62,516 bases of DNA from a virus. Its lineage: Duplodnaviria; Caudoviricetes. The notes under the pieces were generated by a model. It searched no databases. It saw nothing but the letters and a program-made list of their open reading frames with translations, and had not been told where the DNA came from. The DNA is taken from IMG/VR virus record IMGVR_UViG_3300019889_000015, positions 1-62,516 of that record. One strand, 5' to 3'. Positions 9,530-62,516 of the stretch are shown in pieces; position 1 is the first letter of the stretch, and each line of letters starts with the position of its first letter. The position numbers and the translations under genes were made by a program.

Positions 9530-9535
9530 CAGACG

Positions 9536-9580: not shown

Positions 9581-9660
9581 TCCAGCCGAAGAATCTCCCG
9601 TCCGATGGAGATTTTGCCGTCAAGGCACCCCCCAAAACTCCCAGAACATAGGAGATTCTC

Positions 9661-36509: not shown

Positions 36510-36669
36510 CCTGGCGACGTTACTCCCGGAGATCAAGTCGCTGGGCGACACTCCGCTGGAGCGGAGCATCCGCGACCACGCAATGGCGCGGGTCAAAACG
36601 GCACACGCGGTGGCCATAGGGCAGCCGCTGTTCATCTTCATCGAGACCACCTGGCCGACGAGGCCGGGA

Positions 36670-48215: not shown

Positions 48216-48841
48216 CCGCACCCATGGAGTTCGACCAGCCACGCGCCGCCGGGATCGGAGGCGGCGAGAAGATCGACTGGCCCGCCCGGATCGGGCAGCT
48301 CGTGCTCATCGAGCCGAAGTCGATCCAGCGCGGGGTGCAGACCGCCCAGGGTGACGCCGACGCGGTACAGGCCGACGTCGCGTTCATCCTCGGGCCGAAC
48401 GGCCAGCCCTACGAGGAGTTCCCGGACGCGCTCATCTTCACGACCGTGGTCTTCGCCCAGACCGAGAACGTGATCGGCGGGGTGGTGCTCGGCGTCGTGC
48501 AGCAGTACGTCGCCAAGTCCGGCCGGACCACCGTGCAGATCGGCCCGCACGAGGACATGCACAAGGTCGCAGCTCGGGCCTACGTCGCGGACCGGAACAC
48601 CCGGCGGACAGCCGGTGCGTTCGGCCAGCCCGGCGGGCAGGCTCCCCAGCAACAAGGGTGGGGCGCACCGCCTCCGCAGCAGCAGGCCCCGGTTCAGCAG
48701 GCCCCCCAGCAGCAGGCCCCGGCCCAGCAGGCATGGGGAGCCCCGCCGCCCCAACAGCAGACGCCTCCTCCGGCCCAGCAGCCGCCCGCCCAGGGTGGAT
48801 GGGGTGGCCAGCCTCCGGCCCAGGAAACCCCGCCGTTCTGA
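48212..48841 (+). CDS. ssDNA-binding / annealing-type protein
   Basis: Beta-rich core plus Gln/Pro/Gly tail ending ETPPF. Confidence 0.6.
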   Translation: MTAPMEFDQPRAAGIGGGEKIDWPARIGQLVLIEPKSIQRGVQTAQGDADAVQADVAFILGPNGQPYEEFPDALIFTTVVFAQTENVIGGVVLGVVQQYVAKSGRTTVQIGPHEDMHKVAARAYVADRNTRRTAGAFGQPGGQAPQQQGWGAPPPQQQAPVQQAPQQQAPAQQAWGAPPPQQQTPPPAQQPPAQGGWGGQPPAQETPPF

Positions 48842-49026
48842 TGAGGGTCTCGTTCAAGTACGTCGGCTTCGAGGACGAGATCGCCTTCGACGATGCCGTC
48901 ATCGAGATGCCGGGCGCTCCCCGTGTCGGCGAGCACGTCGTGCTGCACGACGTGTCCTACACGGTGAAGGTCGTCTATTGGGACCCGCACCACGCCGACC
49001 ACGACGTCATGGTCCGCCTGATCTAA
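48841..49026 (+). CDS. hypothetical protein
   Basis: PRVGEHV....Y.V..V.W motif. Confidence 0.55.
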   Translation: MRVSFKYVGFEDEIAFDDAVIEMPGAPRVGEHVVLHDVSYTVKVVYWDPHHADHDVMVRLI

Positions 49027-49113
49027 CCCCCAGCCTCGCCCCGCAGGTGGGCAGCCCGTTCGAGCCGGGCCGAGGCACGCAACCAGCACAAGATCAAAGG
49101 AGGGGGTGCCGTC

Positions 49114-49308
49114 ATGGCATATGAACGCGAGCCACGACCGATCGATCAGAGGCTCACCACTCCGTTCGCACAGTGTGGCGACTGTCTGTGGAGCCACGCC
49201 AGGGAGGAGCCGAACATCCGGGTGGCGGTCAAGAGACACGTCGCCGACACCGGCCACGTGGTCGACGTCATCCGGGAGACGATCATGGTGTGGGGGCTGG
49301 GCGAGTGA
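49114..49308 (+). CDS. C2H2-type small protein
   Basis: CGDC.W...H...TGH.V. Confidence 0.55.
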   Translation: MAYEREPRPIDQRLTTPFAQCGDCLWSHAREEPNIRVAVKRHVADTGHVVDVIRETIMVWGLGE

Positions 49309-49919
49309 AAGCGATCGAGACGGTCTACGCGGGGTGTCGATTCCGCAGCCGCCTGGAGGCCCGGTGGGCGGTGTTCTTCGACACGCTCGGCATGGAATGG
49401 CAGTACGAGCCGCAGGGGTTCGAGCTGGAGAACGGCACGCGGTACCTGCCGGACTTCTGGCTACCGGAGTGCAACACCTGGTTCGAGGTCAAGGGAGTCC
49501 CGCCGACCGATCGGGAGCAGGCGACCTTGATCCAGTTCGCTCGCGAGCTACCAGGACCAGGCATGCCCGAAGCCTGGTCAACCGACGGTCTACGGGCTTC
49601 CGAGTACCTCAAGGTCGCCGTGGGCGACATCCCGGAGCATCCGGCGTCGCTGACGTATGTGCCCAGGTCGCTCTGGACCCCCGGCTACATCTGGCGCGTC
49701 CTCGTAGAGGGTTCCTGGGTCAACATCGCGCCACGGTGCTGGCAGTGCTGCCCCAGCGATCACCGGTACGTCGGGTGGGGCTGGTGCTGGCGGTGCGCCA
49801 TCGGCGACGAGGAAGACGGTATGCAGGGGGCTCATGCCGCCCCCCGGCCCAGCATCCTGGCCGCTCACGGCGCCGCCAGATCCGCTCGGTTCGAGCACGG
49901 AGAGCGGGGCGCGCGATGA
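49305..49919 (+). CDS. PD-(D/E)XK endonuclease
   Basis: FRSRLEARWAVFFD...YEP...YLPDF...EVKG. Confidence 0.8.
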   Translation: MKAIETVYAGCRFRSRLEARWAVFFDTLGMEWQYEPQGFELENGTRYLPDFWLPECNTWFEVKGVPPTDREQATLIQFARELPGPGMPEAWSTDGLRASEYLKVAVGDIPEHPASLTYVPRSLWTPGYIWRVLVEGSWVNIAPRCWQCCPSDHRYVGWGWCWRCAIGDEEDGMQGAHAAPRPSILAAHGAARSARFEHGERGAR

Positions 49920-50515
49920 GCAAGGGATTCCACTCCCTCGATGCCGTGTGCGTGGCGGCTTATGCACGCGGCGACATGACCGAAGGCGAACGCCTGGAGG
50001 CTGTGCTGGATCAGCTCGACGACATCCTCGCCGACGACGAAGGCGTCACTGCGGCCCGAGCGAACATCGCTGGCGTCTCGGCGTGGTACGCCAGTCGCGG
50101 GATGCCGGTGTTCCCGCTGTCGGCCAACAGCAAGGTGCCGATGAAGGGCACCCACGGGTTGCTTGACGCCACCGTCGACCCGGCGATTGCCCGGCGCATG
50201 ATCCCGGACGGCTACCGGGCCAACCTCGCGGTGGCGACCGGCCACACGCACGACGTGATCGACGTCGACGGGCCAGAGGGGCATCACAGCGTCATCCGGC
50301 AACTCAAGGCCGACCCCGACTTCCCGCGCGTCTTCGGCATCGGACTGACGCCACGGGGGATGCACTTCTGGGTCGCGCCCACCGGACGCGGCAACACCAC
50401 GGCCATGCTGCCGAGCGTGGACTACCGGGGCATGGGCGGCTACGTGGTCGTTCCCCCATCCGTCGTCGACGACTCGCCGTACCGGTGGCTGATGCCGCCC
50501 GGGACGACGGCCTGA
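49916..50515 (+). CDS. bifunctional primase/polymerase (Prim-Pol) domain protein
   Basis: VFPL...KVP, DAT.D, IDVDG, TPRG.H and GGYVVVPPS motifs. Confidence 0.88.
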   Translation: MSKGFHSLDAVCVAAYARGDMTEGERLEAVLDQLDDILADDEGVTAARANIAGVSAWYASRGMPVFPLSANSKVPMKGTHGLLDATVDPAIARRMIPDGYRANLAVATGHTHDVIDVDGPEGHHSVIRQLKADPDFPRVFGIGLTPRGMHFWVAPTGRGNTTAMLPSVDYRGMGGYVVVPPSVVDDSPYRWLMPPGTTA

Positions 50516-52008
50516 TGGGGTTCTATGACCAGTGGGATGCCCGAAGTGGCGGCGAGGCCCGGTCCACGTCGCCACTGACCGACTCGTCGACCACTCCGTA
50601 TGGTGCGCGGGGGCTCGCCGACGAGCTGGCCCGGCTCCACCTGGCCCGGTCCGGGACACGTAACGACACCCTCAACGAGGTCGCGTTCGCGATCTTCCAG
50701 CTCGTGTACGCCGGGCATGTCGATCTTCGCGACGCCGAACAGGCGATCGGTACGGCCGGGCACGGGATCGGACTATCCGCGCAAGAGATCGCCAAGACAC
50801 TGGGCTCGGCTCGCGAGGGTGCCGCGCGCAAGCCCCGGACCAACGTCCCGGACCCATCCGAGACGGGCACACGGCCCCTGCTGCCGGACGTTCGCTGGGA
50901 TCCCGGCATGCCGGTGGTGCCGAAGCTCGTGGTGGGCGTCAGCGGACCACCAGAGCCGCTGGCGACTCCGGTCGTCGACGCCGATCTGGCCGAGGGACCC
51001 AGCCCCTATGACGCGCTCTACATCCCGCGCTCGGGGCTGGCCTCGCTGCCGCGTGGGGAACCCCTGATCGAGGACTGGATCGACCGGCACACCTACTTCG
51101 TGCTCGTCGGCCGGGACCAGACCTACAAGTCGTTCCTCGCGATCGACTGGCTGCTCTGCCTCGCGACCGGGCGCCCGTGGATGGGCAAAGACACGGTGCT
51201 GTCGCGGGTGCTGTACGTGATCGGCGAGGGCGCCTTCGGCCTCGACGACCGGGTGACGGCGTGGGAGCGGCGACGCAACGGCGGCAAGCAGGTCGACGAC
51301 GAGATGTTCACGACTCGGCGCGCTCCGGTCAATCTTTTCCGCCAAACGAGCGAGTTCTTCGACCTTTTGGAGCGAATCGAGCGCGAAAAGTACGAAGTCG
51401 TGGTCTTCGACACCCTCCAGCGCATGGCCCGTGGCGCGAACCAGGACAAGGCATCGGACGCCGCGATCGTCGTCGGGGCCGTGGATCTGGTCCGGGAGGC
51501 GTCCGGCGGCACGGTCGGGTTCGTCGCCCACTCGGGCAAGTCCGACGAGGATCTCCGGGGCTCGTCGGCGTACGAGGACGACGCCGACATCGTGGTCAGG
51601 ACCAAGCGCGACGAGGACGAAGAGGGCGTGCGCGTCACCCAGACAAAGCGCAAGGACGGCCCTGACGGAACCACGATGATCCTCTACCCCGAAAGGGTGG
51701 CCGGAACCGGCAGTTTGATCTTGTCACCGCACCAGGCGAAGCTGCCCGACAACCCCGACGCGCTCCGGAAGTGGGCCATCCCATTCATGAAAGAACTGGC
51801 TCGGATATCAGTGGGAGAGACCGGTCTCAATAGAAACGACCTGCTCACACGGACCGGTTGTTCGGGCAGAGGGACCGCTGACAACACCCTAGATGACCTG
51901 ATTTCTACTGGGTTTGTCCTGAAATTAGGGACCGTTTCGCGTCCGCGCTATGTGATCACCAATCTCGGACGGACCGTTTTGGAAGACGTGGGGGTGGAAA
52001 CGCGATGA
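50515..52008 (+). CDS. AAA (RepA/AAA_25-like) replicative helicase
   Basis: GTRNDTLN N-domain, Walker A variant GRDQTYKS, VVFDT, HSGK...RGSSA. Confidence 0.85.
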   Translation: MGFYDQWDARSGGEARSTSPLTDSSTTPYGARGLADELARLHLARSGTRNDTLNEVAFAIFQLVYAGHVDLRDAEQAIGTAGHGIGLSAQEIAKTLGSAREGAARKPRTNVPDPSETGTRPLLPDVRWDPGMPVVPKLVVGVSGPPEPLATPVVDADLAEGPSPYDALYIPRSGLASLPRGEPLIEDWIDRHTYFVLVGRDQTYKSFLAIDWLLCLATGRPWMGKDTVLSRVLYVIGEGAFGLDDRVTAWERRRNGGKQVDDEMFTTRRAPVNLFRQTSEFFDLLERIEREKYEVVVFDTLQRMARGANQDKASDAAIVVGAVDLVREASGGTVGFVAHSGKSDEDLRGSSAYEDDADIVVRTKRDEDEEGVRVTQTKRKDGPDGTTMILYPERVAGTGSLILSPHQAKLPDNPDALRKWAIPFMKELARISVGETGLNRNDLLTRTGCSGRGTADNTLDDLISTGFVLKLGTVSRPRYVITNLGRTVLEDVGVETR

Positions 52009-52038
52009 CCAGCAATTACATAGTGCATTCCTCGAAAA

Positions 52039-52113
52039 GGGACCGGTTGGGACCGGTGAGGGACCGGTTGGGACCGGTCGGACCCCCTTTAGGGAACCGA
52101 GGGGGGTCCGACC
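52039..52113. repeat. GGGACCGGT x4 iterons plus inverted repeat; candidate replication origin
   Basis: Copies at 52039, 52049, 52060, 52070; ggtcggaccccc / gggggtccgacc. Confidence 0.6.
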
Positions 52114-52159
52114 TACCGGGCTCCGTTCGGCTTGCATCAAACCGATTCGGAGGATTAGC

Positions 52160-52915
52160 GTGACGACCGATGAGCCCACGAAGCTCCTGTGCCAGTCGAC
52201 GAACTGCCGCCCCACCGACCGTGGTGGCCCGAGGGAAGTCGAACCGTCCCGGCCGCTCTGCCGGAACTGCGCCGACTGGTTCGGCCGGAACCTGACGCAG
52301 ATCGCCGAGATGCTGCCGGACCTCCGTGGCCGGTTGGGCGTCGAGGGCAAGGCGGGCGAGAAGCTCACCGGGACGAAGCTGCCGGGCATCGTGATCAACG
52401 AGGAAGTGTCCGACCTCCTGGCCGAGCTGACCGAGTGGGCGCGCTACCTGGCCAAGCAGGTTCGCCGGTACCACAAGCTCACCCAGCCGCCGCAGTCGTT
52501 CGACGTCGACACCCTCCTGGTGTGGCTGGCCAAATACCACGCCTGGCGCCTGGCCCACCACGACGACCGCGAGCTGGCCGTGTACGTGGTCGACTGCGCG
52601 GCCTGGTACCGGTCGGAGATCCAGCGGATGGCCTACCCGTCAGGCTCCCGGCGCTTCGACATCCCCGGCGGTGTGTGCCGCGTGATGGTGGTCCCCGACG
52701 ACGCGATCGACGGACATCCCGGCTACCCGTGCGTTGGTCAGCTCTACGCCATCGTCCGTGACGGGGCGTCGTTGCTGCCTTCGGAGATCGTCTGCGACAG
52801 GAACGCCGACCACCGGATACCCTCTGGTCAGTGGGTTCAGTACGCGCGACAACTGGAAAAGGCGGGTCATGCCAGCGGTAGCGATTCTGGAGCGGGAGTT
52901 CCTGACGGCGGCTGA
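52160..52915 (+). CDS. zinc-finger protein, putative late transcription regulator
   Basis: LCRNC and further Cys; position between replication and late genes. Confidence 0.55.
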   Translation: MTTDEPTKLLCQSTNCRPTDRGGPREVEPSRPLCRNCADWFGRNLTQIAEMLPDLRGRLGVEGKAGEKLTGTKLPGIVINEEVSDLLAELTEWARYLAKQVRRYHKLTQPPQSFDVDTLLVWLAKYHAWRLAHHDDRELAVYVVDCAAWYRSEIQRMAYPSGSRRFDIPGGVCRVMVVPDDAIDGHPGYPCVGQLYAIVRDGASLLPSEIVCDRNADHRIPSGQWVQYARQLEKAGHASGSDSGAGVPDGG

Positions 52916-53042
52916 AATTGCGGACATAACGGGATGGACTCTCCCGTATATCTACAATTTGGCCTCGGCCGAGGGATGGTCGAGGACCAGATCCCGTCCG
53001 GTTCGATACAATCCCCGGTGTGTTGTTCGGAGTTGTGCTTGA
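52869..53042 (+). CDS. small HTH protein
   Basis: LTAAEIADITGW....IYNLAS..GW. Confidence 0.6.
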   Translation: MPAVAILEREFLTAAEIADITGWTLPYIYNLASAEGWSRTRSRPVRYNPRCVVRSCA

Positions 53043-53068
53043 CAGCTTTGACCAGGCCATGTGATATT
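53039..53068 (+). promoter_or_regulatory. late promoter candidate
   Basis: TTGACA-N18-GATATT with TGn extension. Confidence 0.5.
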
Positions 53069-53219
53069 AGCTCTGATGGTGGGGGGATTACACCCAGTCA
53101 CCGTCTCCGAAGCCTCCGGCGCTCGTGATTTCATCCCCGTGATCATGAGTTCTTCGGGGGCTTCGCCATGTCCGGGATTCCCTCACTCTCCGCGTCCCCC
53201 CGACCCTCCTGGAGCCCCT

Positions 53220-54137
53220 GTGCGCGTGCTGAACATTCCCGGCGGGGCCGACACGGGCGGCAACGGGTGGCGGACCAAGGATGCGTTCGACAGGTACCTC
53301 CCCGAGTGGACGTACAACCTGTGCGTCTCCAGCCCCAAGTACATGCTCTACCCGGTCGACCGGCCGTGGAGCGAGGCCCGGCAGCTCTGGGAAGCCGCCG
53401 ACGTCGTTCACGTCCGCAACAACTACGAGATCGAGCGGGTCCTGGGCGTGCAGCCCCGGCCCACCGTGATCCAGCACCACGGCACCCACTTCCGCACCGA
53501 GCACAACCAGCTCCGGCGGATAGCGGCGGCCCGTCGCTCGATCCAGATCGCCTCGACGCTTGACCTTTGGCTGATCGCCCCCGACGAGACCGAGTGGCTT
53601 CCGTCCCCGTACGACCTCGACTGGCTCCACGGCTTCCGCCTGCCGGACGAGGTACGCCCCGACGACGGCGTGTTCCGCATCGCCCACGCGCCCACCGATC
53701 GGCGAGTGAAGTCGACCGAACGGTTGATCGCCGCCGTCGAACGGCTGAGGAACTACGTGCCCGTCGAGCTGGACCTGATCGAGAACGCCTCGTGGCAGGA
53801 CTGCCTGCGGCGCAAGGGCCGGGCCGACGTCTACTTCGATCAGGTGATCCTGGGCTACGGCAACAACGCGATCGAGTCCTGGGGTATGGGCGTCCCCGTC
53901 ATCGCCGGGGCCGCCGACGCCACACTCGACGAGATGACGCGCCGGTTCGGCTCGCTGCCGTTCTACCCGGCCGACCAGACCACGATCTTTGACGCACTGA
54001 TGGCCCTCGCCGATCCTGAGACGAGGGCCACCTGGGCGAAGCGGGGCGAGGAGCACGTGTGGGAATTCCACGACGAGGCCGCCGTGGTCCCCCAGCTCCA
54101 GGACATGTACCAGCGGGCGTACGACGCCGGGGCTTAG
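53220..54137 (+). CDS. GT-B glycosyltransferase
   Basis: IAHAPT.R..KST, ADVYFDQ...GYG..AIESW.MG.PVI motifs; GGAG RBS. Confidence 0.8.
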   Translation: MRVLNIPGGADTGGNGWRTKDAFDRYLPEWTYNLCVSSPKYMLYPVDRPWSEARQLWEAADVVHVRNNYEIERVLGVQPRPTVIQHHGTHFRTEHNQLRRIAAARRSIQIASTLDLWLIAPDETEWLPSPYDLDWLHGFRLPDEVRPDDGVFRIAHAPTDRRVKSTERLIAAVERLRNYVPVELDLIENASWQDCLRRKGRADVYFDQVILGYGNNAIESWGMGVPVIAGAADATLDEMTRRFGSLPFYPADQTTIFDALMALADPETRATWAKRGEEHVWEFHDEAAVVPQLQDMYQRAYDAGA

Positions 54138-54280
54138 CTGGCGGGCCGGTTGAAATCCTCGTGCCGCCCGGAGCCGTTGCAGATCCTCCCTCTGGGGCGC
54201 GTGGAGTGCTGGGCGAGGAACCCGTTGGGGTCCACGCGTACGCCCTCCCGGCCGCACTCGTGGCATGTCGTGATCTTCAT
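54134..54280 (-). CDS. small Cys/His protein (48 aa)
   Basis: Hand translation CHEC...H...CNGSG. Confidence 0.5.
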   Translation of the reverse strand: MKITTCHECGREGVRVDPNGFLAQHSTRPRGRICNGSGRHEDFNRPAS

Positions 54281-54456
54281 GTCCGCCTCTCCCTCTCCAG
54301 CCGCAGCAGGATCTCCAGCGCGCCAGAGGCCTCGCGGATCAGCTTGGCCAGTTCCTCGGTTCCCAGCTCGATGTTGGCTATGCGGCCACCGGTGCCGACA
54401 TGTTGCGAGACGCGGCTACTCAGCTCGGCCCGAGTGACGCATTCCTTTTCCGGCAT
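54277..54456 (-). CDS. hypothetical protein (59 aa)
   Basis: Hand translation; ATGA overlap. Confidence 0.45.
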   Translation of the reverse strand: MPEKECVTRAELSSRVSQHVGTGGRIANIELGTEELAKLIREASGALEILLRLERERRT

Positions 54457-54465
54457 TTGCCCCCC

Positions 54466-54684
54466 CTAGAGTTTCCGGCCGGTACCCCGGCTTGCTCGAA
54501 GTCGATCTTCTAGATCGTCACACCCGGCGTCGTTGCCGACCGGGCCGTACTGATTGACGAGCAGGAACCACGGGCACCGATACCCGTCGTCCTGCCGCGT
54601 CCAGAGCTTGCGACCTCGCGCCCACAACTCGCCCTCCTGGTCCCGGACGACGGCGTACATGCGCTTCGGCTCGTCCATGATCAT
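54466..54684 (-). CDS. hypothetical protein
   Basis: VRD.EG..W.R...W...W..L...YGP motif. Confidence 0.6.
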   Translation of the reverse strand: MIMDEPKRMYAVVRDQEGELWARGRKLWTRQDDGYRCPWFLLVNQYGPVGNDAGCDDLEDRLRASRGTGRKL

Positions 54685-54716
54685 TCCTCTCTAGGCCAGT
54701 GTCAGCCAGAACCAGA

Positions 54717-54935
54717 TCATGCGGTGGTCTCCAGCTCGAACCGGCTCGCATGCCATGGCCCTGGCTCTGCTGCCCCGTCGAACTGGACAGTCACCCAGCG
54801 GTGGTTTTCAGAGTCCACGGTCACGGTGCCGATGGTCCCGACCGGGAACGGGAGGACCCGCGCCCTGGTCGGTAGCACGCTCGGCAACGTGTTGTTGATC
54901 AACCGCACGCGGTCACCCTTTTTGAACATTTTCAT
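54717..54935 (-). CDS. SH3-like small protein
   Basis: FKKGDRVRL...GTIGTV...V.FD. Confidence 0.6.
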   Translation of the reverse strand: MKMFKKGDRVRLINNTLPSVLPTRARVLPFPVGTIGTVTVDSENHRWVTVQFDGAAEPGPWHASRFELETTA

Positions 54936-55170
54936 CGCCGGTCACCCTCTTTCGCGGCTCCTCGATCCTGTGGGTCTCCAGGTATCGGCGAGCGGCCCTG
55001 TAGTCCTCGTGACGGGGGGGATCGGTCAGCTCCAGCACACGGTCCACGAACGCTTGCCACTGCGACTGACTGAGGAATATGTAAGCCGTGGGGGACGGTT
55101 TACGCGCCCTCTTGAAGATGTGTTCGCGGGCGATGATGTCGATGGCCTCGGCGAGACGATTGTCGGCCAT
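54913..55170 (-). CDS. hypothetical protein
   Basis: TGATG coupling; MADNRL N-terminus. Confidence 0.55.
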   Translation of the reverse strand: MADNRLAEAIDIIAREHIFKRARKPSPTAYIFLSQSQWQAFVDRVLELTDPPRHEDYRAARRYLETHRIEEPRKRVTGDENVQKG

Positions 55171-55508
55171 CAGGGCCAGATCCAGTCGACTCGAACCCAG
55201 TTGAACCTGTCAGGTTGCAACATCCTCACCGTGGCATAGGCCATAGCGTCGGTGACCGTCTGCATCAGCAGTTGTCGTTGGTCATCGGCCTGTTGCCATG
55301 CCGACGACGTGATCGTGAATCGTCGGGTGTGTTCAGGCATCGGCCGGAGTGGGATCACCCCGGCCACGACCTCGATGATGAGGCGCGCACCGTCGGCTTG
55401 CGGGGGCTGGCTTGCGGCCTGCGTTTGCTGGATCGCATCGATCAATTCCTGGGGCATCGGCATCTCGTAGCTACCGGGCGGCAGGATGTTGCTGGGCTCG
55501 TTGGTCAT
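55170..55508 (-). CDS. hypothetical protein, paralogue of 28816-29058
   Basis: Visible alignment; GAGGAG RBS. Confidence 0.65.
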   Translation of the reverse strand: MTNEPSNILPPGSYEMPMPQELIDAIQQTQAASQPPQADGARLIIEVVAGVIPLRPMPEHTRRFTITSSAWQQADDQRQLLMQTVTDAMAYATVRMLQPDRFNWVRVDWIWP

Positions 55509-55816
55509 GAATTCTCCTCTGGCGCGGGGAACGCCGGGACGGGCTGCGCTAGGGCGGCGTCGGCAATCGCCTTGAGTAGGTTCTGCTCGTTGAACACCGC
55601 CGTGCGGACGGTCTTCCCGGTCTCCTTGTCCTTGATCCAGAGCTTTATCCCCAGGGGGATGATCCGTACCCAGGTCAGCTCATACTTGTCGCTCTCGCCC
55701 GAGGCGAGAACCTGCGTCAGGTTCATCGGCGAGTAGCCCTCGTGGATCTCTAGCGGCAGGCCCGGCAGGGTGACCGTGGTTGGTTCCGGGTGGGTGTGCG
55801 ACTCAGTGATCTTCAT
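55505..55816 (-). CDS. hypothetical protein
   Basis: AGAGGA RBS. Confidence 0.6.
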   Translation of the reverse strand: MKITESHTHPEPTTVTLPGLPLEIHEGYSPMNLTQVLASGESDKYELTWVRIIPLGIKLWIKDKETGKTVRTAVFNEQNLLKAIADAALAQPVPAFPAPEENS

Positions 55817-55828
55817 CGTTTTTCCTCT

Positions 55829-56068
55829 CTAGGCCAGTGCAGCGGACATCGACCAGAAACTGACGAACAAGATCACGACCGAACCCCCGGCCGGACCGTA
55901 GACCGGGATCTTGGCGTGCCACCCCTCGCGGCCCCAGACGGCCACTGGGATGACCAGACAGAGCCCCATGGCAGCCAGTCCCGCGAGGATGCCCACGGCG
56001 CTCCCACGGGGCGCCAGACGCGGCACGAAGGCCAGCACGAGCGCCGCGACGACCATCGCGCGGATCAC
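55829..56068 (-). CDS. three-TM membrane protein
   Basis: Hydrophobic throughout. Confidence 0.55.
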   Translation of the reverse strand: MIRAMVVAALVLAFVPRLAPRGSAVGILAGLAAMGLCLVIPVAVWGREGWHAKIPVYGPAGGSVVILFVSFWSMSAALA

Positions 56069-56484
56069 TGGCGCGTCTCCCGGTCGGCCTTGGCGCGACG
56101 GATGCGGGCCGAATACGCCTCGCGCGTCTGGTCGGCTATAGCCGTCAGGATCTTGTCGGTCATTTCCCCCAGGTGATCACGGTCGTCGTGGTCGACGGGG
56201 GTAGCGCCCTGCCCCAGCTCGCCTTCCCGGTGGGCGTGACGCTCCGGCACGGTCAGCGACGCCAACGGGCTGCCGTCCTCCCTGAGTCGGTTACGGGTCG
56301 TCGCGCGGAACGCGGGAACAGTGAACGTCCCCAGACTGTCCGACAGCTCGCGCGCCCTCTGCAAGATCATGTCCGGGATCATCCCGATCACGTCGTCTTC
56401 TACCTCGGCCGGGTCTAGCCCGTACTCATTGGCCCACGCTTTCAGGTCGACATCGACACGTAGTGTCAGGGTCAATCTGGCCAT
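56065..56484 (-). CDS. cassette gene, hypothetical
   Basis: ATG directly follows element copy 1. Confidence 0.7.
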   Translation of the reverse strand: MARLTLTLRVDVDLKAWANEYGLDPAEVEDDVIGMIPDMILQRARELSDSLGTFTVPAFRATTRNRLREDGSPLASLTVPERHAHREGELGQGATPVDHDDRDHLGEMTDKILTAIADQTREAYSARIRRAKADRETRQ

Positions 56485-56574
56485 GATCGTTCTCCTCGCT
56501 CGGTTGTGAGGTCGTCCGGTCGGACGTGGCACGCGACAGCTCCCCGGCGGCTGTCACGCACCATGCGCGACCGG
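56485..56574 (-). repeat. intergenic structured element, copy 1
   Basis: Long stem plus cgtcc-GACC-ggacg hairpin plus CAACCGAGCGAGGAGAACGATC. Confidence 0.9.
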
Positions 56575-56814
56575 TCAGCGCCCGGACCCTACCGGGGTCA
56601 CCCGGATGATCTTGTCCCCCCGCGTCGTGATCTCGACGGGCACGCCGATGTTCTCGGAGTTGGTGATGCCGTAATTCACGGCCCCGTCCGCATCGGTCAG
56701 CATCGAACCGATGTCGCCCGCGAAGAACACCTGGTGTCGCGGGTTGCCGTTGTTGGTGTTCGCCCCGACGCGTTCCACGCTCGCGATGGTGGCGACGAAA
56801 GTGTGCTTGGTCAT
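56575..56814 (-). CDS. cassette gene, hypothetical
   Basis: NTNNGNPR motif; stop abuts element. Confidence 0.7.
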   Translation of the reverse strand: MTKHTFVATIASVERVGANTNNGNPRHQVFFAGDIGSMLTDADGAVNYGITNSENIGVPVEITTRGDKIIRVTPVGSGR

Positions 56815-57149
56815 GATCGTTTGCTCCTGTTCACTCTGATGTACTCCCACGTGCCGTCCCATGTACCGTCGTCCCACGACTCGCCGACTGGTCCCCAGCC
56901 GTGCTCGCGCAGCAGGCGTAGGACCAGCTCCCGGCCCGGCCCGGTGTCGAGGTTCGGGCACTGGTACTCGGGTTCCAGGTCGGTCTGGTCGTGCTCGTCG
57001 TCGAAATAGTTCGCGTCGAACACGTCGACCTGGGAGCCCTCATCATCGACGACATGGACCGGCACCGAGTAGCAGAATCGGCCGTTGACGTGTCCGACTG
57101 CCGCTTCACCGCCCGGCCCGTCAACGTTGTTCAGTTTCGCCGTGAACAT
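56811..57149 (-). CDS. acidic hypothetical protein
   Basis: GGAGGGG RBS. Confidence 0.55.
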   Translation of the reverse strand: MFTAKLNNVDGPGGEAAVGHVNGRFCYSVPVHVVDDEGSQVDVFDANYFDDEHDQTDLEPEYQCPNLDTGPGRELVLRLLREHGWGPVGESWDDGTWDGTWEYIRVNRSKRS

Positions 57150-57546
57150 GGCCCCTCCCCCCGGTCTTCTTGGTCTTCTTGGCAGGCTTGCGCGGTGTGC
57201 CCAGCCATGCGGATACCGTGCGCCAGTCGCGCCCGACAAGGCGCGCGGCAGCGAGCTTGGACGCTCCTTGGGCGATTTCCATGGTGACGATCTGCCGTAG
57301 TCCGGCCAGTGCCTCGGCTTCGGCCTGACGGGCTTGGGCGAGCTTGAGATTCAGCCGTGCGACCTCCCGGTCGCGCTCCCCGGCGAGATGCTTATACGCC
57401 GCTATGCGCGCGTCGGTGCGCTCCCCGTCCCGGTCGGCCGGGTACCGCTCGTTGATCTCGTCGAACAGGACGGCCAGCTCTCGCGCCCGCTCGTCGGGCA
57501 CGTCTTCGTCGAGCCACATACGGATCTCGTCGAGACTCGTCGCCAT
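57121..57546 (-). CDS. C-terminal HTH protein
   Basis: GASKLAAARLVGRDWRTVSAWLG; preceded by a truncated element (57547-57574). Confidence 0.7.
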   Translation of the reverse strand: MATSLDEIRMWLDEDVPDERARELAVLFDEINERYPADRDGERTDARIAAYKHLAGERDREVARLNLKLAQARQAEAEALAGLRQIVTMEIAQGASKLAAARLVGRDWRTVSAWLGTPRKPAKKTKKTGGRGHVHGETEQR

Positions 57547-57574
57547 GATCGTTTCTCCCCTTGCTATTGGTCGG

Positions 57575-58042
57575 TCAGTTGCTCGCGTCGGCCCGCGTAC
57601 GAACGATAGTGATCGTGCCGCCCCGCGCGAGATGCGTTCGATAGTTTTCGTGGTCGCGTCGGAACGAGACCGTCCCATCCTTGAGCGTGCGCACGCTGAC
57701 AACCGCGTGAGTGCCGCCCCAGATGTCGAACACAAGGTCCCCGGCGCGTAGCTCGGTCACGGGAACCTTGGTCGCGTCCGGCCGCACGTCGGCGATGTCG
57801 ACGATTGCCACGACCGGGGGTGCGTCATCCCCGGCGATACCGGCGATACGGTCGGCCGCGTGCTGGCAGGCGAGCAACTCGGCCGCTCCCCGGTCACCAG
57901 CGCCCCCTAGGCGCTCCCCGGCGAACCGGACCACCCACTCTTGCCCCGGCCTGAGTGCCGGGTCGTCAGCGGGCTCGTAGCGCCCCGCATACTCGATCTC
58001 GACGGAGTAACGGCTGTCGCGCGTCCCATCTCGGTGAAACAT
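57575..58042 (-). CDS. cassette gene, hypothetical
   Basis: ATG follows element copy 2. Confidence 0.7.
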   Translation of the reverse strand: MFHRDGTRDSRYSVEIEYAGRYEPADDPALRPGQEWVVRFAGERLGGAGDRGAAELLACQHAADRIAGIAGDDAPPVVAIVDIADVRPDATKVPVTELRAGDLVFDIWGGTHAVVSVRTLKDGTVSFRRDHENYRTHLARGGTITIVRTRADASN

Positions 58043-58133
58043 GGTCGTTCTCCTCGCTCGGTTGTGAGGTTGCCCGGTCGGGCACGACACGCGACAGCTC
58101 CCCGGTAACTGTCGCGCATCGTGCGCGGTCGGG
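58043..58133 (-). repeat. intergenic structured element, copy 2
   Basis: Near-identical to copies 3 and 4. Confidence 0.9.
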
Positions 58134-58352
58134 TCAGTGCTCGCGCTCGTACGGGTCGATGCCTAGCCGTACCCTGACGGTCTCGTCGAGCTTGCACGGT
58201 TCGATCGTCAGCGTCCCATCAGCCTTGAGCGCGAAGACGATCAGCCCGCTCCCGTTGGGCGACTCGAATCGGATCGTCCGCTCGTTTGGGTAGTCACGGC
58301 GCGTCAACGGCGGTTCGGTGTCCACCATGATCCGGCTACGCGTGTTGCACAT
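58134..58352 (-). CDS. cassette gene, hypothetical
   Basis: Exactly fills the space between copies 2 and 3. Confidence 0.7.
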   Translation of the reverse strand: MCNTRSRIMVDTEPPLTRRDYPNERTIRFESPNGSGLIVFALKADGTLTIEPCKLDETVRVRLGIDPYEREH

Positions 58353-58442
58353 GATCGTTCTCCTCGCTCGGTTGTGAGGTTGCCCGGTCGGGCACGACAC
58401 GCGGCAGCTCCCCGGTAGCTGTCGCGCATCGTGTGCGGTCGG
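58353..58442 (-). repeat. intergenic structured element, copy 3
   Basis: tgccc-GACC-gggca variant. Confidence 0.9.
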
Positions 58443-58610
58443 TTAGAAACCCTCCGGTAATTCGTAGGGACGCCACACGCGGGCGATGTGCGCCCGGTAC
58501 CGGTCCGCCCCGTTGCCGACGTGACTCCCGCATCGACAGTTCCCCCATGGGCTCACGACGTGCGCCTTTACGACTTGTTGGAAATGTTCGGGCGATCCGT
58601 GCACGATCAT
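58443..58610 (-). CDS. cassette gene, small Cys/His protein
   Basis: H...CRCG...H; exactly fills the space between copies 3 and 4. Confidence 0.7.
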   Translation of the reverse strand: MIVHGSPEHFQQVVKAHVVSPWGNCRCGSHVGNGADRYRAHIARVWRPYELPEGF

Positions 58611-58701
58611 GATCGTTCTCCTCGCTCGGTTGGTGAGGTTGCCCGGTCGGGCACGACACGCGACAGCTCCCCGGTAGCTGTCGCGCATCGTGCGCGGTCG
58701 G
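58611..58701 (-). repeat. intergenic structured element, copy 4
   Basis: gcacgatgcgcgacagct / agctgtcgcgtgtcgtgc stem. Confidence 0.9.
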
Positions 58702-59301
58702 TCAGCCGTCCGCTTTGGCCTTGTGGATCATGCGCAAGATCTTCTTGGCAAGGTCCGGCGACAGGTCCCGCGCGACGATCGTCACGGCGGTTCCTTGGTA
58801 GTTGGATTCGGCTTTCAGCTCGTAGCCCCAGCTAACCTCTGTGCCGTGACCACGCTCGCCGACGTGCGCCCCCGGTGCGAGCTTGCTCAACGACTCGCCC
58901 AGCTTGGCGCGCCCCACTTCCGCCTCGTCGCGCTTGCGTAGCGCGGCCTGTGCCCTTGCCAGTTCCGCTCGGTATTCGGGCAGTACGCGCGTCGCTATGG
59001 CCTTTGCTATGGCCTTAGCGCCCCGCTCGGTCGCCACGGTCGCCCTGACGTTCGCGAGGCCGGGGTAGACCTCGCTGTACGCGCCGAGGGGGTAGTTCCC
59101 GCTAGCCTCGATGCGTGACGCGTCGTCATAGCTATTGCGGCCGCTTGCGGCTAGGTGGATCCGCGCCCCGTCCGGTCCGGCCAGCATGCAGTCATGATCA
59201 TATTTCGATGCCTCGACTACCCACGACTGGCCATCGGCAGCCGTCAGCTCGCGTGCGACGTCGGGCGCGATAGCCCGTATCGTCTCGGTGCCCTTGTTCA
59301 T
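58702..59301 (-). CDS. cassette gene, hypothetical
   Basis: Exactly fills the space between copies 4 and 5. Confidence 0.75.
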   Translation of the reverse strand: MNKGTETIRAIAPDVARELTAADGQSWVVEASKYDHDCMLAGPDGARIHLAASGRNSYDDASRIEASGNYPLGAYSEVYPGLANVRATVATERGAKAIAKAIATRVLPEYRAELARAQAALRKRDEAEVGRAKLGESLSKLAPGAHVGERGHGTEVSWGYELKAESNYQGTAVTIVARDLSPDLAKKILRMIHKAKADG

Positions 59302-59398
59302 GATCGTTCTCCTCGCTCGGTTGTGAGGTCGTCCGGTCGGACGTGGCGCGCGGACAGTTACCCCGGTCGGGTCGCTGTCGCGCACCATGCGCGGTCGG
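59302..59398 (-). repeat. intergenic structured element, copy 5
   Basis: Variant with enlarged apical loop. Confidence 0.9.
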
Positions 59399-59929
59399 TC
59401 AGGGGCGCCTGTAACCGTCGGTACCGTCGAGCTTGTCGGCGAGACTTTCGATCTCGGCGCGCGCGTCGTCGGTCAGCGGCTCAACGAGCCACCGCGACCC
59501 CCACCGATACCCGGTCTCCGGGCACTGTGGCGTGTTGTCGAGCCGGTATCTGCTGCGCTTGTCCCACGACACGTTGTCGGGCACCGTGACGGCCGTTTGA
59601 TGCGCGCAACCCGCGCGCATGTCGTTGAGATGCCAGCGCTCCCACGCGCGACGTAGCGCCCCGATCTCGTCGAGCGTCCACCCCGGCGCCGGGGTCGTGA
59701 TCTCGTTGAGAATGTCGACGATCTGCCCGGCGCCGTCGCTGTCGCGACGACGCGACCTCTCGCGGAACGTGTGACCCATCATCGACACGCGCTCGTGTGC
59801 CCTGATGCCGTGGTGGTCGATTGTCTCGGCGGGCACGCTTTCGCTTTCCCACGCCTGCCATGCGATCGTGATCTCGACGTAGACACTCTCGCCATCGCCG
59901 GTCTTGCCGATGAATCCTTGCCGTTCCAT
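59399..59929 (-). CDS. cassette gene, conserved phage protein
   Basis: GQI...W.RWHLNDMRAGC.HQ...GYRWGS.WL.EPL motif. Confidence 0.8.
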   Translation of the reverse strand: MERQGFIGKTGDGESVYVEITIAWQAWESESVPAETIDHHGIRAHERVSMMGHTFRERSRRRDSDGAGQIVDILNEITTPAPGWTLDEIGALRRAWERWHLNDMRAGCAHQTAVTVPDNVSWDKRSRYRLDNTPQCPETGYRWGSRWLVEPLTDDARAEIESLADKLDGTDGYRRP

Positions 59930-60028
59930 GGTCGTTCTCCTCGCTCGGTCGTTGCTCGGTCGTCCGGTCGGACGTGGCACGCGGACAGTTACCCGGTCGG
60001 GTCGCTGTCGCGCACCATGCGCGGTCGG
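59930..60028 (-). repeat. intergenic structured element, copy 6
   Basis: Most similar to copy 5. Confidence 0.9.
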
Positions 60029-60259
60029 TCAGGCTTCCGGGTTAACGTGCACGTCGAATTCAGCCGTGTGGAAGCCGATCACGGCCAGCACGCGGAAGCC
60101 TTGATGTGTCACGAGCGAGTCAGCGTGCCCGGCATTCGCAGCCCCCTTGACCGTGATCACTTCCGATCGAACGCGCGTGAGCGTTACCTCGGGGTAACCG
60201 TGCACGGTCGTCTGTGCGAATGTCAGCGTCTCGCCGACGATAAAGTCAGGTCGAATCAT
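60029..60259 (-). CDS. cassette gene, hypothetical
   Basis: Exactly fills the space between copies 6 and 7. Confidence 0.7.
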   Translation of the reverse strand: MIRPDFIVGETLTFAQTTVHGYPEVTLTRVRSEVITVKGAANAGHADSLVTHQGFRVLAVIGFHTAEFDVHVNPEA

Positions 60260-60347
60260 GGTTGATCTCCTCGCTCGGTTGGGTCGTCCGGCCGGACGTG
60301 GCACGCGACAGGTTCCCCCGTCGCTGTCGCGCATCACGCTCGGTCGG
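60260..60347 (-). repeat. intergenic structured element, copy 7
   Basis: cgtcc-GGCC-ggacg variant. Confidence 0.9.
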
Positions 60348-60659
60348 TCAGCCGTGAGAGACGCGTACGCCACCGCGCGGACCGAACTCGACAAGCCGGT
60401 CAGGGTAAGGGTCGGACGTCTCGCGAGGGTCGGACAGATACAGACTCATGCTCGCGCGATCGTCGACGCTCGGAGTCAGCGTTGTGTCGGTCCTGCCGTT
60501 CGCGTAGGTGAACGTCTGAGGCTGCCAGTAGCCAATGTTCGCGCGGTCCGCGAATGCCTCGCGCGCGGCAGCCATGCTCGGGAACGTCTCCAGGTGATCG
60601 TCAAGGTAGGACGGCCCGTAGCTACTGCCACCGTTCCAAAGTGCGAATAGCGTCATCAT
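60348..60659 (-). CDS. cassette gene, conserved actinophage protein
   Basis: W.GGSSY...E.F.S...A...YPD....GPRGGV motif. Confidence 0.75.
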   Translation of the reverse strand: MMTLFALWNGGSSYGPSYLDDHLETFPSMAAAREAFADRANIGYWQPQTFTYANGRTDTTLTPSVDDRASMSLYLSDPRETSDPYPDRLVEFGPRGGVRVSHG

Positions 60660-60705
60660 GATCGTTTCTCCTCGCTCGGTCGTGCTCGGTCGGTCGTCCG
60701 GTCGG
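60660..60705 (-). repeat. intergenic element, copy 8 (large hairpin deleted)
   Basis: Keeps ccgaccggacgacc and the RBS half only. Confidence 0.8.
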
Positions 60706-60882
60706 TCAGGCTACGTCGAGAGTCGCGCTGGCCCCGCTGGTCTCGCGATCCTCAACGGCGTGCCGATAACCGCGCGCAAACGCGATCGAGTAGCCCGTTA
60801 GCTCCGCGTAAGTGAGCGTGCGAGACGTGCCTACGTCGTAGCCCGCTAGGTAGTCTTTGTCGCGCTGCTGTTGTCGCGTCAT
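60706..60882 (-). CDS. cassette gene (58 aa)
   Basis: Hand translation MTRQQQRDKDYLAGYDVG...; ATG and TGA abut elements. Confidence 0.7.
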   Translation of the reverse strand: MTRQQQRDKDYLAGYDVGTSRTLTYAELTGYSIAFARGYRHAVEDRETSGASATLDVA

Positions 60883-60980
60883 GATCGTTGCTCCTCGCTC
60901 GGTCGTGCTCGGTTGGTTGTCCGGTCGGACATGGCACGCGACAGGTTCCCCCGTCGCTGTCGCGCACCACGCTCGGCCGG
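60883..60980 (-). repeat. intergenic structured element, copy 9
   Basis: tgtcc-GACC-ggaca variant. Confidence 0.9.
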
Positions 60981-62012
60981 TCAGTGCCGGTCAGCGTTGC
61001 CGGTCAGTTCGTCCGTGTCGATCCCCTCGCTGTCGGCCCAGTCGTTGAACCCGCAGCGGTAGGCCGTGGGGTCGATCTCGCGCAGCACGCGCGACGGCTG
61101 ATAGGTCAGCTCGCCGATAGTGACCGGCCCGTCGATCTCGTCGATCATGTCGTCATAACGCTCATAAACCTCATCCCACGACAGCGGCTCGTCGTCGTCG
61201 TCATCGTCGTCGGTCTCGGCGTCGTCGGTCTCGGCGACGCTGACCGAGTAGGAGAGGCCTAGGTCGTGGTCGCCGTCATATCCGGGCGTCGCGCCGTGAA
61301 CAGTGCCCGTACCGTCGGCCGCTAGGCCATGTTCGGCCAACCATTCGGACATCTCGCCCTGCCAATGCGCGGCCGTCCCCAGTACGGCGAGCGTTTCACG
61401 CGTGGCCGTGTATTCGCCGGACCAATTGCCGTCCACCCACTCTGGGGAGTTATCCTCGCCCCGTTCGCGCTCGTCCGCGAGGTATTCCCATGCCTCTTGC
61501 GCGCTGTCAAAAACGGCGGGCTCGTCGCCGCCCGTGGGCAGGTATCCGGGCACGTTGATCGTTGCGACGTAGCGCGTTGCGGGCTCGGTCGTCGGCGACT
61601 TGATCTCGTAGAGATCGACTGACCAGACGGGCCGCACGCCATACTCGGCCGACATCCACACGTTGTAGTTGACGACGTACGGGTGACCGTCGAGACCGAC
61701 AAACACACTGTCGCGGTCGGACACAGCCATGCCGTTGAAATCGGCCATGTCGTCGAACACGACGAGACCGTCATCGGCCACGTTGGACACGCTGATCTCA
61801 GTGGGCAGGTAGTCAGGCACACCGTGGAAGATCACAAACGTGTTGCCGTAGTAGTCAGTTTGGATCAGCGAACCGTCGCGTGCGACGTAATCCGGGCGGA
61901 TCACCAACGGCAGTCCGGGGATGCGGTCAGATGCGGCCGTTGGCCAGACCACATGGTGCCCGCCTTGCGCGTTGCTGGTGCTGGGGATGGTCGTCATGTT
62001 GTTGTCAGTCAT
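60981..62012 (-). CDS. acidic multi-domain protein, first gene of the array
   Basis: 343 aa; poly-Asp linker; C-terminal EIDPTAYRCGFNDWAD domain. Confidence 0.75.
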   Translation of the reverse strand: MTDNNMTTIPSTSNAQGGHHVVWPTAASDRIPGLPLVIRPDYVARDGSLIQTDYYGNTFVIFHGVPDYLPTEISVSNVADDGLVVFDDMADFNGMAVSDRDSVFVGLDGHPYVVNYNVWMSAEYGVRPVWSVDLYEIKSPTTEPATRYVATINVPGYLPTGGDEPAVFDSAQEAWEYLADERERGEDNSPEWVDGNWSGEYTATRETLAVLGTAAHWQGEMSEWLAEHGLAADGTGTVHGATPGYDGDHDLGLSYSVSVAETDDAETDDDDDDDEPLSWDEVYERYDDMIDEIDGPVTIGELTYQPSRVLREIDPTAYRCGFNDWADSEGIDTDELTGNADRH

Positions 62013-62048
62013 GGTCGGCGCCTCTCGTGTGCTCGGTTGGTAGGTCGA

Positions 62049-62100
62049 ACACTACGGCCGTTCTACGTACGGCACAACGTATGGCACAACGTACGGCATA
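62049..62100 (-). promoter_or_regulatory. leftward promoter with 12-bp tandem repeats
   Basis: TTGTGC-N17-TAGTGT on the minus strand; cgta(c/t)ggcacaa x2.9. Confidence 0.6.
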
Positions 62101-62147
62101 TTGTTACAACATCGTTATACGCACCTATGGCACAAGGTGATCTTGAT

Positions 62148-62450
62148 ATGCCTAGTCAGCCATGGTCACAGGGCTATAAGGGCTTTCCTACTGCCATGCG
62201 TAGGCGCATATTGCGGGAGGAGAAGCATTGCCGGGTGTGTGGGGAGATAGCCACGGTGGCGGATCACATCGTGGGGCATGCCGATGGTGTGGCCATGGGT
62301 TGGACGTTGACCAGGATTCACAGCAGAGCCAATGGTCAGGCGTTGTGTGATGACTGCCACGATGCGAAGACAGAAGCGGAAAAGAAACGCGGTCGTGAAC
62401 GTAGATCGATCAAGCGTCGGCCAGAGTCGCATCCTGGCCTGATGGGTTGA
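62148..62450 (+). CDS. HNH endonuclease (terminase-associated)
   Basis: CRVC...DHI...N.QALC..CH..KT; upstream of terS on the circular map. Confidence 0.88.
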   Translation: MPSQPWSQGYKGFPTAMRRRILREEKHCRVCGEIATVADHIVGHADGVAMGWTLTRIHSRANGQALCDDCHDAKTEAEKKRGRERRSIKRRPESHPGLMG

Positions 62451-62516
62451 GGATCATTCTCACCTGGTGGGTACCGGGGGTGGGTATACCCTCCCCGTCC
62501 CGCCAGGCGGCGGCGG

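Follow-up and report, generated by a model that had tools for sequence, protein, structure and literature searches.

A gap-free array of stop-to-start hairpin units in the ORFan region of an actinophage, a candidate family of intercistronic RNA elements

Intergenic cassettes of phages and the array of an actinophage

In the T4-type phages RB49 and phi1, PeSL units run from the stop codon of an upstream gene to the Shine-Dalgarno (SD) sequence and start of the downstream one, contain a stem-loop with G-T pairs and are found in hyperplastic regions, mostly before ORFans (PMC2839356). The same text describes a strong sigma-70 promoter, an AT-rich tract and a stem-loop shown to terminate transcription, and it explains insertions and deletions between close relatives by recombination between copies (PMC2839356). 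In Cluster K phages, the start-associated sequence (SAS) is a conserved, SD-containing sequence a few nucleotides before the ATG, in the non-structural arm and in one orientation (PMC3203893, PMC12699233). About half of these sequences have, directly upstream, an imperfect inverted repeat of 17 bp with a variable spacer, which makes an extended SAS (ESAS; PMC3203893). The ESAS arms are reported not to support RNA pairing (PMC3203893), SigA-like hexamers are placed inside them (PMC11373665), and the function of SAS and ESAS is given as unproven (PMC3203893, PMC12699233). As for phage T7, RNase III is described as cutting the early mRNA at five intercistronic sites, irregular hairpins of ~20 bp in a polycistronic mRNA made by the host RNA polymerase (RNAP), to yield optimally translated mono- or dicistronic mRNAs (PMC4858673). 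Here we analyse the IMG/VR record IMGVR_UViG_3300019889_000015, a 62,516-bp viral contig of a high-GC actinophage, which in its whole length is called the window below. At its right end, the open reading frames (ORFs) of a leftward gene block are separated by nine copies (e1 to e9) of a unit of about 90 nt, most of which carry a long hairpin.

The overall observation of such an array, made in an earlier note from the sequence alone, is confirmed. A repeat search and a reading of the minus strand found all nine copies, eight of them full and one hairpin-less (Table 1). From 58043 to 60980 each intergenic base belongs to an element, in the order stop, element, ATG, and there are indeed no spare bases; the stop-to-start placement is exact in nine of nine copies, all in one orientation. 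Read from the stop codon, a full unit begins with CCGRCCG and a long imperfect hairpin, continues with an A/C-rich spacer and ends in CCGAGCGAGGAG-AACGATC-ATG. The SD and fixed spacer of the window phage, GAGGAGAACGATC-ATG, are genome-specific when phages are compared. The 12-mer CCGAGCGAGGAG has nine exact occurrences, on the minus strand only and nowhere else in the window; allowing one mismatch raises the count to 11, which none of 100 shuffles reached (mean 1.3). The start-associated GGAG..GATC-ATG stands before nine minus-strand genes of the operon and before no plus-strand start, and it is also found upstream of genes J and L and of the gene at 54678.

Covariance models were built from the copies and searched, as the earlier note had suggested: R1 from the eight full copies of the window, and R2 from the hairpin only. 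Apart from e8 and antisense matches to the eight copies themselves, a scan of the window with R1 returned no further copy above 22 bits. The two remnants reported earlier are genuine partial matches (R1 gave 18 bits on 57544-57644). The hairpin-less e8 is what remains of e9 when the sequence from one CCGRCCG repeat to the other is taken out. Neighbouring copies are most alike, as had been noticed: the hairpin parts of e2, e3 and e4 are 94-97% identical, those of e5 and e6 97% and those of e7 and e9 92%. A weak R1 match of 22 bits (E 0.0015), without an R2 match, lies in the structural arm at 9527-9616 on the plus strand.

In layout the unit is PeSL- or ESAS-like, not integron-like, and it belongs with phage intergenic regulatory cassettes. 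PeSL units come closest, with a stop, a stem-loop, an SD and a start in a hyperplastic ORFan region; the analogy drawn in the earlier note holds to this extent, but the sigma-70 promoter is absent from the window elements. They also differ from PeSL units in having no U-tract and a longer hairpin with a conserved wobble box, and no sequence relation was found. Cluster K SAS/ESAS share the inverted repeat and variable spacer before a start-associated sequence, a likeness of layout only. The SAS consensus GGGATAGGAGCCC gave a single match in the window, with two mismatches (34193), which is chance level. The window hairpin differs from ESAS in its strong RNA-pairing support, in having no SigA-like hexamers and in showing no sequence homology with R2 on TM4; moreover, ESAS are scattered, whereas the window array is gap-free.

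The hairpin and its distribution

Among the matches listed, R2 places the hairpin family in at least five lineages: the window, a co-occurring phage (the variant, described below), phage G002, the viral contigs L219 and L220, and one Pseudonocardiaceae genome. G002, complete at 63,309 bp, carries four copies, one of which (Pa) is 78% identical to e9 over 72 nt. What it has in common with the window is otherwise a weak integrase match (a fragment) and gene L (48%), the sole array protein found in both. L219 and L220 each have two hairpin copies and a homologue of gene E. In L219 the grammar is a TGA, the hairpin, a spacer and an SD-ATG that is uniform but its own, after a unit composed of an inverted repeat and TATGGT that looks promoter-like. 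This unit, a 10-bp inverted repeat then TATGGT with the look of a promoter or operator, occurs three times in L219 (1739, 3242 and 5737). The Pseudonocardiaceae genome (G251) holds a single copy between two small ORFs; these neighbours have no family match, and no protein is common to this genome and the window.

The 23 hairpins of the five lineages have stems of 18-27 bp that start 0-5 nt past the stop codon or pair with up to three of its bases, and the stop is TGA before 21 of them. Their spacers are 24-37 nt long (one is 58 nt), A/C-rich and U-poor, and unstructured between hairpin and SD. Wobble pairs, bulges and an outer interrupted stem are present, and the flanking CCGRCCG repeat is part of that outer stem. 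Each of the eight full window copies folds into a single long hairpin, with z-scores of -1.8 to -4.9; the hairpins are GC-rich, with stabilities of -30 to -52 kcal/mol.

Pairing was assessed on 20 hairpins from three phages (window, variant and G002). In this set 92.3% of cells are paired, against 77.6% in shuffles, and the covariation score is 0.447 against 0.184; none of 500 shuffles reached either value. Registers slid as a control paired at most 41% of cells. Eleven of the 20 pairs are altered on both sides, that is, by compensatory changes. A tandem wobble occupies adjacent positions, U.G in every copy and G.U in 19 of the 20. The base of the stem (5' UGGUG / 3' UGCCA) keeps its sequence from lineage to lineage, as do the CCGRCC flanks, and the apical stem varies within and between genomes with its pairing kept.

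The strand on which the structure forms is clearest in the variant, where all eight hairpins fold better in the sense than in the antisense direction (sums of -289.5 and -198.5 kcal/mol). They contain three to six G.U pairs each, and their arms are ~70% complementary as DNA and fully paired as sense RNA. In a DNA cruciform or on the opposite strand, each G.U pair would become an A.C mismatch; such pairs thus mark the sense RNA. Covariance-model scores are likewise far higher on the sense strand than antisense. Since the copies also share the orientation of their genes, and given the pairing in relatives, the hairpin is taken as a sense-strand RNA structure that is selected as such.

Scans with cmscan against Rfam returned only a chance miRNA match at E<=1 on 55000-62516, and nothing at E<=0.1 on the variant contig L037 and the G002 stretch L195. 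The array gave no match to 50,697 phage records by megablast or distant blastn, nor did the single elements e9 and Pc by distant blastn, and scans of viral contigs for the exact start motif were also without a match. R2 found nothing significant on the right arms of TM4 (at most 13 bits), Apricot and Cornie; in the latter two the right arm is without an array, and its genes overlap and all lie on the plus strand. In L010, which encodes a distant relative of the 53061-54137 protein, the sequence runs almost directly to the terminase, without an array. A pattern scan of metagenomes listed at least 118 stretches, among which only L037 was real by R1; of 52 stretches from viral pattern scans only L148 was real, and in the last viral scan 100 of 119 stretches were scored with R2, with only a weak match in L387 (31.7 bits). 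Eight single matches in genome contigs were judged to be chance. No description of the hairpin element was found in the literature, in a search mostly outside subscription journals. The hairpin family is a candidate new RNA family for Rfam.

REP and BIME sequences are repeated extragenic palindromes found just after stop codons in bacterial operons, where they act as mRNA decay barriers; they are host chromosomal families. The window hairpins are also repeated palindromes right after stops. Unlike host families, however, they were found by R2 in 0 of 136 other genomes of the genus to which a metagenome-assembled genome (MAG) containing the window sequence is assigned, in 0 of 150 class-sampled and in 1 of 150 family-sampled genomes, with 34-37 candidates scored per genome, few enough for weak copies to be missed.

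Other repeats were seen in these relatives. In L221, a phage with an E homologue, three intergenic repeats of ~85 nt follow stop codons (4477-6009); their GGTTCGA motif resembles a T arm and their 7-bp stem an acceptor stem. ARAGORN was negative for a tRNA, and the repeats may be a different kind of intercistronic punctuation. At another E-family locus (L217, 406-3842) a CA-rich leader, ACAAACACACAAAC..AAGGG..ATG, occurs five times. Upstream of its hairpin array, G002 has a non-coding region of 1.2 kb dense in the short repeats CATGACAAC and GATGTCC (L195 6300-7500), and further downstream several starts are preceded, at a distance of 20-40 nt, by repeated CAAGATCA(A/T)C motifs (L195 11940-12800).

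Gene turnover and the role of the unit

Comparison of ORF content and order with a relative, which the earlier note had proposed, was made possible by the variant, whose forms co-occur with those of the window in both soil samples. The array content is almost entirely different and rearranged, with the architecture kept. The two phages are 99.8% identical over 48056-54967 (~6.9 kb); after a skip of 577 nt, 247 nt align at 96.8%, and beyond this the sequences cannot be aligned. A second variant contig, further left, is 97.1% identical to the window. The variant array is complete on L037, a metagenome contig of 5.7 kb, and comprises nine units, eight with a hairpin and one (Vc) without. Among its first 12 genes, four have clear homologues in the window at 30-52% identity (vg5, vg8, vg10 and vg11, matching genes I and M), and one more match is weak (vg7 to F, 28%, E 3e-4). 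The two halves of gene I correspond to vg5 (45%) and vg10 (52%), which are separate genes four apart in the variant. Gene M is matched by both vg8 and vg11 and is thus duplicated there, together with the 3' half of its upstream element: copies Vg and Vi have common 3' arms, and Vg is a chimera whose 5' part makes its own hairpin. Gene order differs between the two arrays. J and vg9 have nothing in common but a PHROG. At the distal end, vg13 to vg15 are 92-100% identical to O, R and S of the window; the skipped 577-nt stretch (54968-55543, with gene P and most of Q) is absent from the variant, and O is fused there to the last 18 residues of Q (vg13). In vg4, the periodicity in G+C at third codon positions (GC3) shifts by +1 at about 2150-2180 of L037, after which the gene ends exactly at the next element; a pseudogene, a frameshift or an error of assembly could each account for this change of frame.

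The modules of the elements have been reassorted. The hairpins of e5 and e6 are 97% alike and their start modules 75%, those of e9 and e7 are 92% alike and their start modules 56%, and e1, e3 and e5 combine identical start modules with three hairpin types. Since modules were reassorted and one variant copy is chimeric, recombination inside elements is plausible, as for the PeSLs of T4; a ~90-nt sequence repeated in one orientation between dispensable genes amounts to portable homology. We infer that recombination has caused the gene turnover, and homology-driven exchange within elements is, on the sequences compared, a plausible by-product of their repetition. A dedicated cassette mechanism is not supported. 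The earlier idea of a gene-shuffling platform thus keeps module reassortment, the chimeric copy and gene turnover on its side, but the genes are not tied to the elements and the recent breakpoint is inside a gene. Genes do not travel with the elements: the hairpin family is present at only 2 of 79 viral loci with an E homologue, and not adjacent to E, and the L homologue of G002 has no hairpin beside it. The fused gene I and a cassette remnant after vg8 are imprecise events, and the arrays are old, at the identities given above.

The reading we favour, with a confidence somewhat above even, is that the unit is an intercistronic RNA punctuation element of a hyperplastic ORFan region, combining a processing or decay-barrier hairpin with a ribosome binding site (RBS) insulator along a long leftward operon. 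One long operon of small accessory genes would be transcribed from a repressor-controlled promoter at the right end. The hairpin would then work after transcription, as a processing or decay-barrier site that is cut by host ribonucleases or resists them, and it would insulate each cistron, the standard RBS downstream staying open whatever gene follows. Recombination within units, between hairpin and start module, might reshuffle, delete or duplicate genes, as a by-product only. The single polycistronic transcript, its processing or stabilisation and the insulation of translation are what we infer from sequence features. The early region of T7 is a functional precedent: the window hairpin is similarly intercistronic and irregular, measures about two helical turns and would lie in a polycistronic transcript, and its cleavage by RNase III is putative. 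The RNase III sites of T7 are not known to be near-identical repeats or to be tied to a uniform RBS. Masking of the SD by a small CCUC/GAGG pairing was considered and dropped, as it involves only 4 bp and is absent in other lineages.

Judging from their motifs, the 150 nt that separate gene A from the divergent HNH gene are likely to be the promoter/operator of the operon. A putative leftward promoter, with hexamers read by eye, is formed by a -35 TTGTGC (62077-62072), 17 nt and a -10 TAGTGT (62054-62049); a consensus promoter scan did not call it. The variant has a counterpart, TTGCAT-17-TAGTGT (L037:400-428). Four 16-nt operator-like repeats, ACGTAYGGCACAACGT, lie at 62065-62138, three of them spaced 12 nt apart, and resemble iterated operator sites over the putative promoter. 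As an operator motif, TCAAGATCA is enriched with one mismatch (35 against 8) but scattered through coding DNA of the window. Within the elements no promoter was seen: a consensus scan of 54000-62516 placed its one sigma-70-type site at 54705-54677, outside all elements, and no TANNNT was found in element sequences read by eye.

Several points weigh against this punctuation reading. Of the window's eight copies, the fold energy is clearly better in the sense direction in four, and the antisense is better or equal in the other four; with so weak a strand asymmetry, an inverted repeat acting at the DNA level is possible for the window genome on energy alone. The sequences used for covariation are related, and the shuffle controls therefore overstate its significance. 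The hairpin is strictly adjacent to the stop, and its stem base is conserved in sequence as well as in structure; both features would point to a specific factor or a link with translation termination, and a plain stabiliser model explains neither. As for recombination, the only recent visible junction lies inside gene O and not at an element, and four runs, which cover two soil samples, showed no joint of a cassette deletion or circle in their contigs, contigs being prone to drop rare variants. All four runs consist of contigs, which break at elements. The joint 54966->55544 seen in these runs is the variant's 577-nt difference; another, 55790->60284, whose shorter side is just 22 letters long, was rejected as a deletion, being a cross-match of element copies.

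If the hairpins were transcription attenuators or terminators, each would stop part of the RNAP and expression would fall in steps along the array, as with the stem-loop half of the T4 PeSL, which is described as a terminator (PMC2839356). The stability and G+C content of the hairpins and their position directly after stops fit this role. Intrinsic terminators, however, have a U-tract, and the window hairpin does not: past the hairpin, the longest run of T measures 1-4 nt in each of the 23 copies, and none of the six terminator-like sites found by a scan falls at an element. Mycobacterial RNAP does not terminate at hairpins without a U-tract (PMC3993855). There is also no in-element promoter for a restart, and eight efficient terminators in series would silence the distal genes. 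Termination is therefore unlikely. A site for a sequence-specific RNA-binding protein of phage or host, co-regulating translation of the array through the UGGUG/UGCCA box and CCGRCC, would account for a stem base and flanks whose sequence is kept from lineage to lineage, next to an apical stem that only covaries, and for a fixed, short distance to the RBS. Nonetheless, L and the weak integrase match are the only candidates for a phage factor common to window and G002, and the variant array is without L; we regard this explanation as rather unlikely, although a host factor as the reader of the hairpin is possible.

Explanations at the DNA level fare less well. The hairpin might be a selfish element, similar to miniature inverted-repeat transposable elements (MITEs) or REP sequences, that inserts at CCGRCCG between genes, its arms being terminal inverted repeats and e8 and Vc empty sites. 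The 7-nt direct repeat on both sides, the loss in e8 of the hairpin with one repeat copy, and the presence of the element in otherwise unrelated phages would agree with this. Yet the flanking repeat belongs to the outer stem, all 23 copies have the same orientation relative to genes, the arm mismatches are biased to sense-strand G.U pairs, which is not expected of DNA-level repeats, and no transposase or RAYT-like gene was seen in a non-exhaustive search, all of which makes such insertion improbable. Operators or promoters, as proposed for Cluster K ESAS, would have a dimeric regulator bind the inverted repeat and give each gene its own promoter. The ESAS and SAS have the same layout (PMC3203893, PMC11373665), and the window copies fold about equally well on both strands. 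But the elements contain neither TANNNT nor a -35/-10 pair, the arms of the variant are only ~70% complementary as DNA but fully paired as sense RNA, and an apical stem that differs within one genome and still pairs fits RNA, not one repressor specificity; this proposal is very improbable. The analogy with integrons, made in the earlier note, would turn the hairpins into attC-like folded sites of a site-specific cassette system. Promoterless ORFs in the same orientation, each followed by an imperfect hairpin of 60-70 nt, variable gene content and an encoded large serine integrase are in its favour, and the hairpins are homogeneous within a genome, a trait of chromosomal integrons. Against it, there is no IntI, and the only recombinase seen is that serine integrase, ~20 kb away; as the earlier note had said, the window encodes no tyrosine recombinase (0 matches to PF00589, with the positive control found in 14 of 14 genomes). 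A pattern scan of the 23 elements for attC core sites (RYYYAAC / GTTRRRY) matched one, e7. Homologous genes elsewhere lack the hairpin, the remnant and the fused gene bespeak imprecision, the wobble bias singles out RNA of the transcribed sense strand, and, as weak evidence, the contigs of the four runs contain no excision joints. This explanation is largely refuted already and retains hardly any credibility. On the whole, what stands of the earlier interpretation is a standard stop-to-start expression module in a variable ORFan region; the integron analogy, an in-element promoter and the joint travel of genes and elements do not.

It is tempting to extend the punctuation reading to a portable expression socket, to which we give a small but real chance. 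Each unit would bring its own stop (TGA at the foot of the hairpin) and its own start (SD, fixed spacer and ATG), so that any in-frame open DNA between two units would become an insulated cistron. Recombination between hairpin and start modules would move, duplicate, split and fuse genes within and between unrelated actinophages, and a factor reading the UGGUG/UGCCA box would couple termination to processing or re-initiation. If this were true, the array would be a nursery for ORFans such as gene F, and the hairpin a new class of phage RNA signal.

Genome context, array genes and implications

The window sequence is also contained in a contig of 65,365 bp (G001:C889) from a MAG that bears the title Pseudonocardia sp.; in this contig its end is joined to its start via 10 extra bases (7952-7963), giving a closed genome of ~62,526 bp. 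Since this contig joins the two ends, the genome is essentially complete and the array is its right end. The contig's own end runs into the variant and belongs to it, and the contig is therefore an assembly chimera of two co-occurring phages. The host assignment is based on the MAG bin and one genome match at family level. By terminase, the nearest cultured phages are Gordonia phage Apricot and Mycobacterium phage Cornie (64% identity). Structural genes run rightward from 0.6 to 24 kb, and the leftward block of about 25 small genes extends from 62012 down to about 54134. The exonuclease and RuvC-like genes claimed earlier are both present. Because it encodes a large serine integrase, the phage is probably temperate.

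Table 1. Coordinates of the array and of other features of the window
Feature	Position	Strand	Description
Divergent intergenic region	62013-62165	-	between gene A (minus) and HNH gene (plus)
Remnant	62013-62040		CCAACCGAGCAC...
Gene A	60981-62012	-	343 aa, first of leftward operon; only the C-terminal ~60 aa match phrog_9294 (unknown function)
Element e9	60883-60980	-	hairpin, spacer and start-associated sequence; R2 80.9 bits
Gene B	60706-60882	-	58 aa; no family match
Element e8	60660-60705	-	46 nt, hairpin-less; R1 33 bits
Gene C	60348-60659	-	103 aa; no family match
Element e7	60260-60347	-	full copy, hairpin model R2
Gene D	60029-60259	-	76 aa
Element e6	59930-60028	-	full copy, hairpin model R2
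Gene E	59399-59929	-	176 aa; unannotated family
Element e5	59302-59398	-	full copy, hairpin model R2
Gene F	58702-59301	-	199 aa; strict ORFan
Element e4	58611-58701	-	full copy; R2 84.1 bits
Gene G	58443-58610	-	55 aa
Element e3	58353-58442	-	full copy, hairpin model R2
Gene H	58134-58352	-	72 aa
Element e2	58043-58133	-	full copy, hairpin model R2
Gene I	57575-58042	-	155 aa; halves match two variant genes
Remnant	57547-57574	-	CCGACC...GGGGAGAAACGATC-ATG; SD/start-associated part, without hairpin
Genes J, K, L	56575-57546	-	overlap or abut, no hairpin between; J is a helix-turn-helix (HTH) protein, phrog_2311
Element e1	56485-56574	-	full copy, hairpin model R2
Distal block: M, N, O, P, Q, R, S and further small ORFs	54134-56484	-	without hairpins
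Recombination and replication genes	42-54 kb
Exonuclease	46023-47222
RuvC-like gene	42872-43564
Large serine integrase	36469-38169		phrog_95, E 7e-65; missing from the earlier note

The array ORFs of 55-199 aa show no similarity to each other, as had been noticed by eye (blastp of 19 window ORFs, E<0.01), and all window array ORFs have GC3 periodicity of coding type. Searches of 25 array proteins of the two phages in Pfam and PHROGs named only J and vg9 (both HTH) and vg6 (ParB-C-terminal-like); a few others had weak or moderate matches to unnamed PHROG families. The early host-takeover or anti-defence roles suggested for these genes in the earlier note are therefore hypothetical. Used as an anchor for relatives, gene A returned a domain match of 43 residues only. 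Gene E has 72 metagenomic homologues and 79 viral loci, and its family has invariant Cys and His positions (C108, H110 and C136); its structure model is confident (pLDDT 89.5), with no fold match in the PDB at E<=0.001 (best E 0.26). Gene F found no homologue but itself at E<=0.001 among 1633 candidates from 5.8 billion protein clusters.

The 'ORFanage' regions of phages are a birthplace and a turnover site of new genes, including anti-defence genes, and detailed knowledge of their expression and reshuffling is limited to the PeSLs of T4-type phages. High-GC actinophages present a different solution, a structured RNA with remarkably clear covariation and an invariant wobble box, placed gap-free between genes and common to phages that are otherwise nearly unrelated. 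For synthetic operons in actinobacteria, the unit could also provide a compact natural part that combines an insulator with an RBS. It offers a testable handle on the post-transcriptional organisation of actinophage operons, in which the related SAS and ESAS motifs have been left unexplained since 2011.

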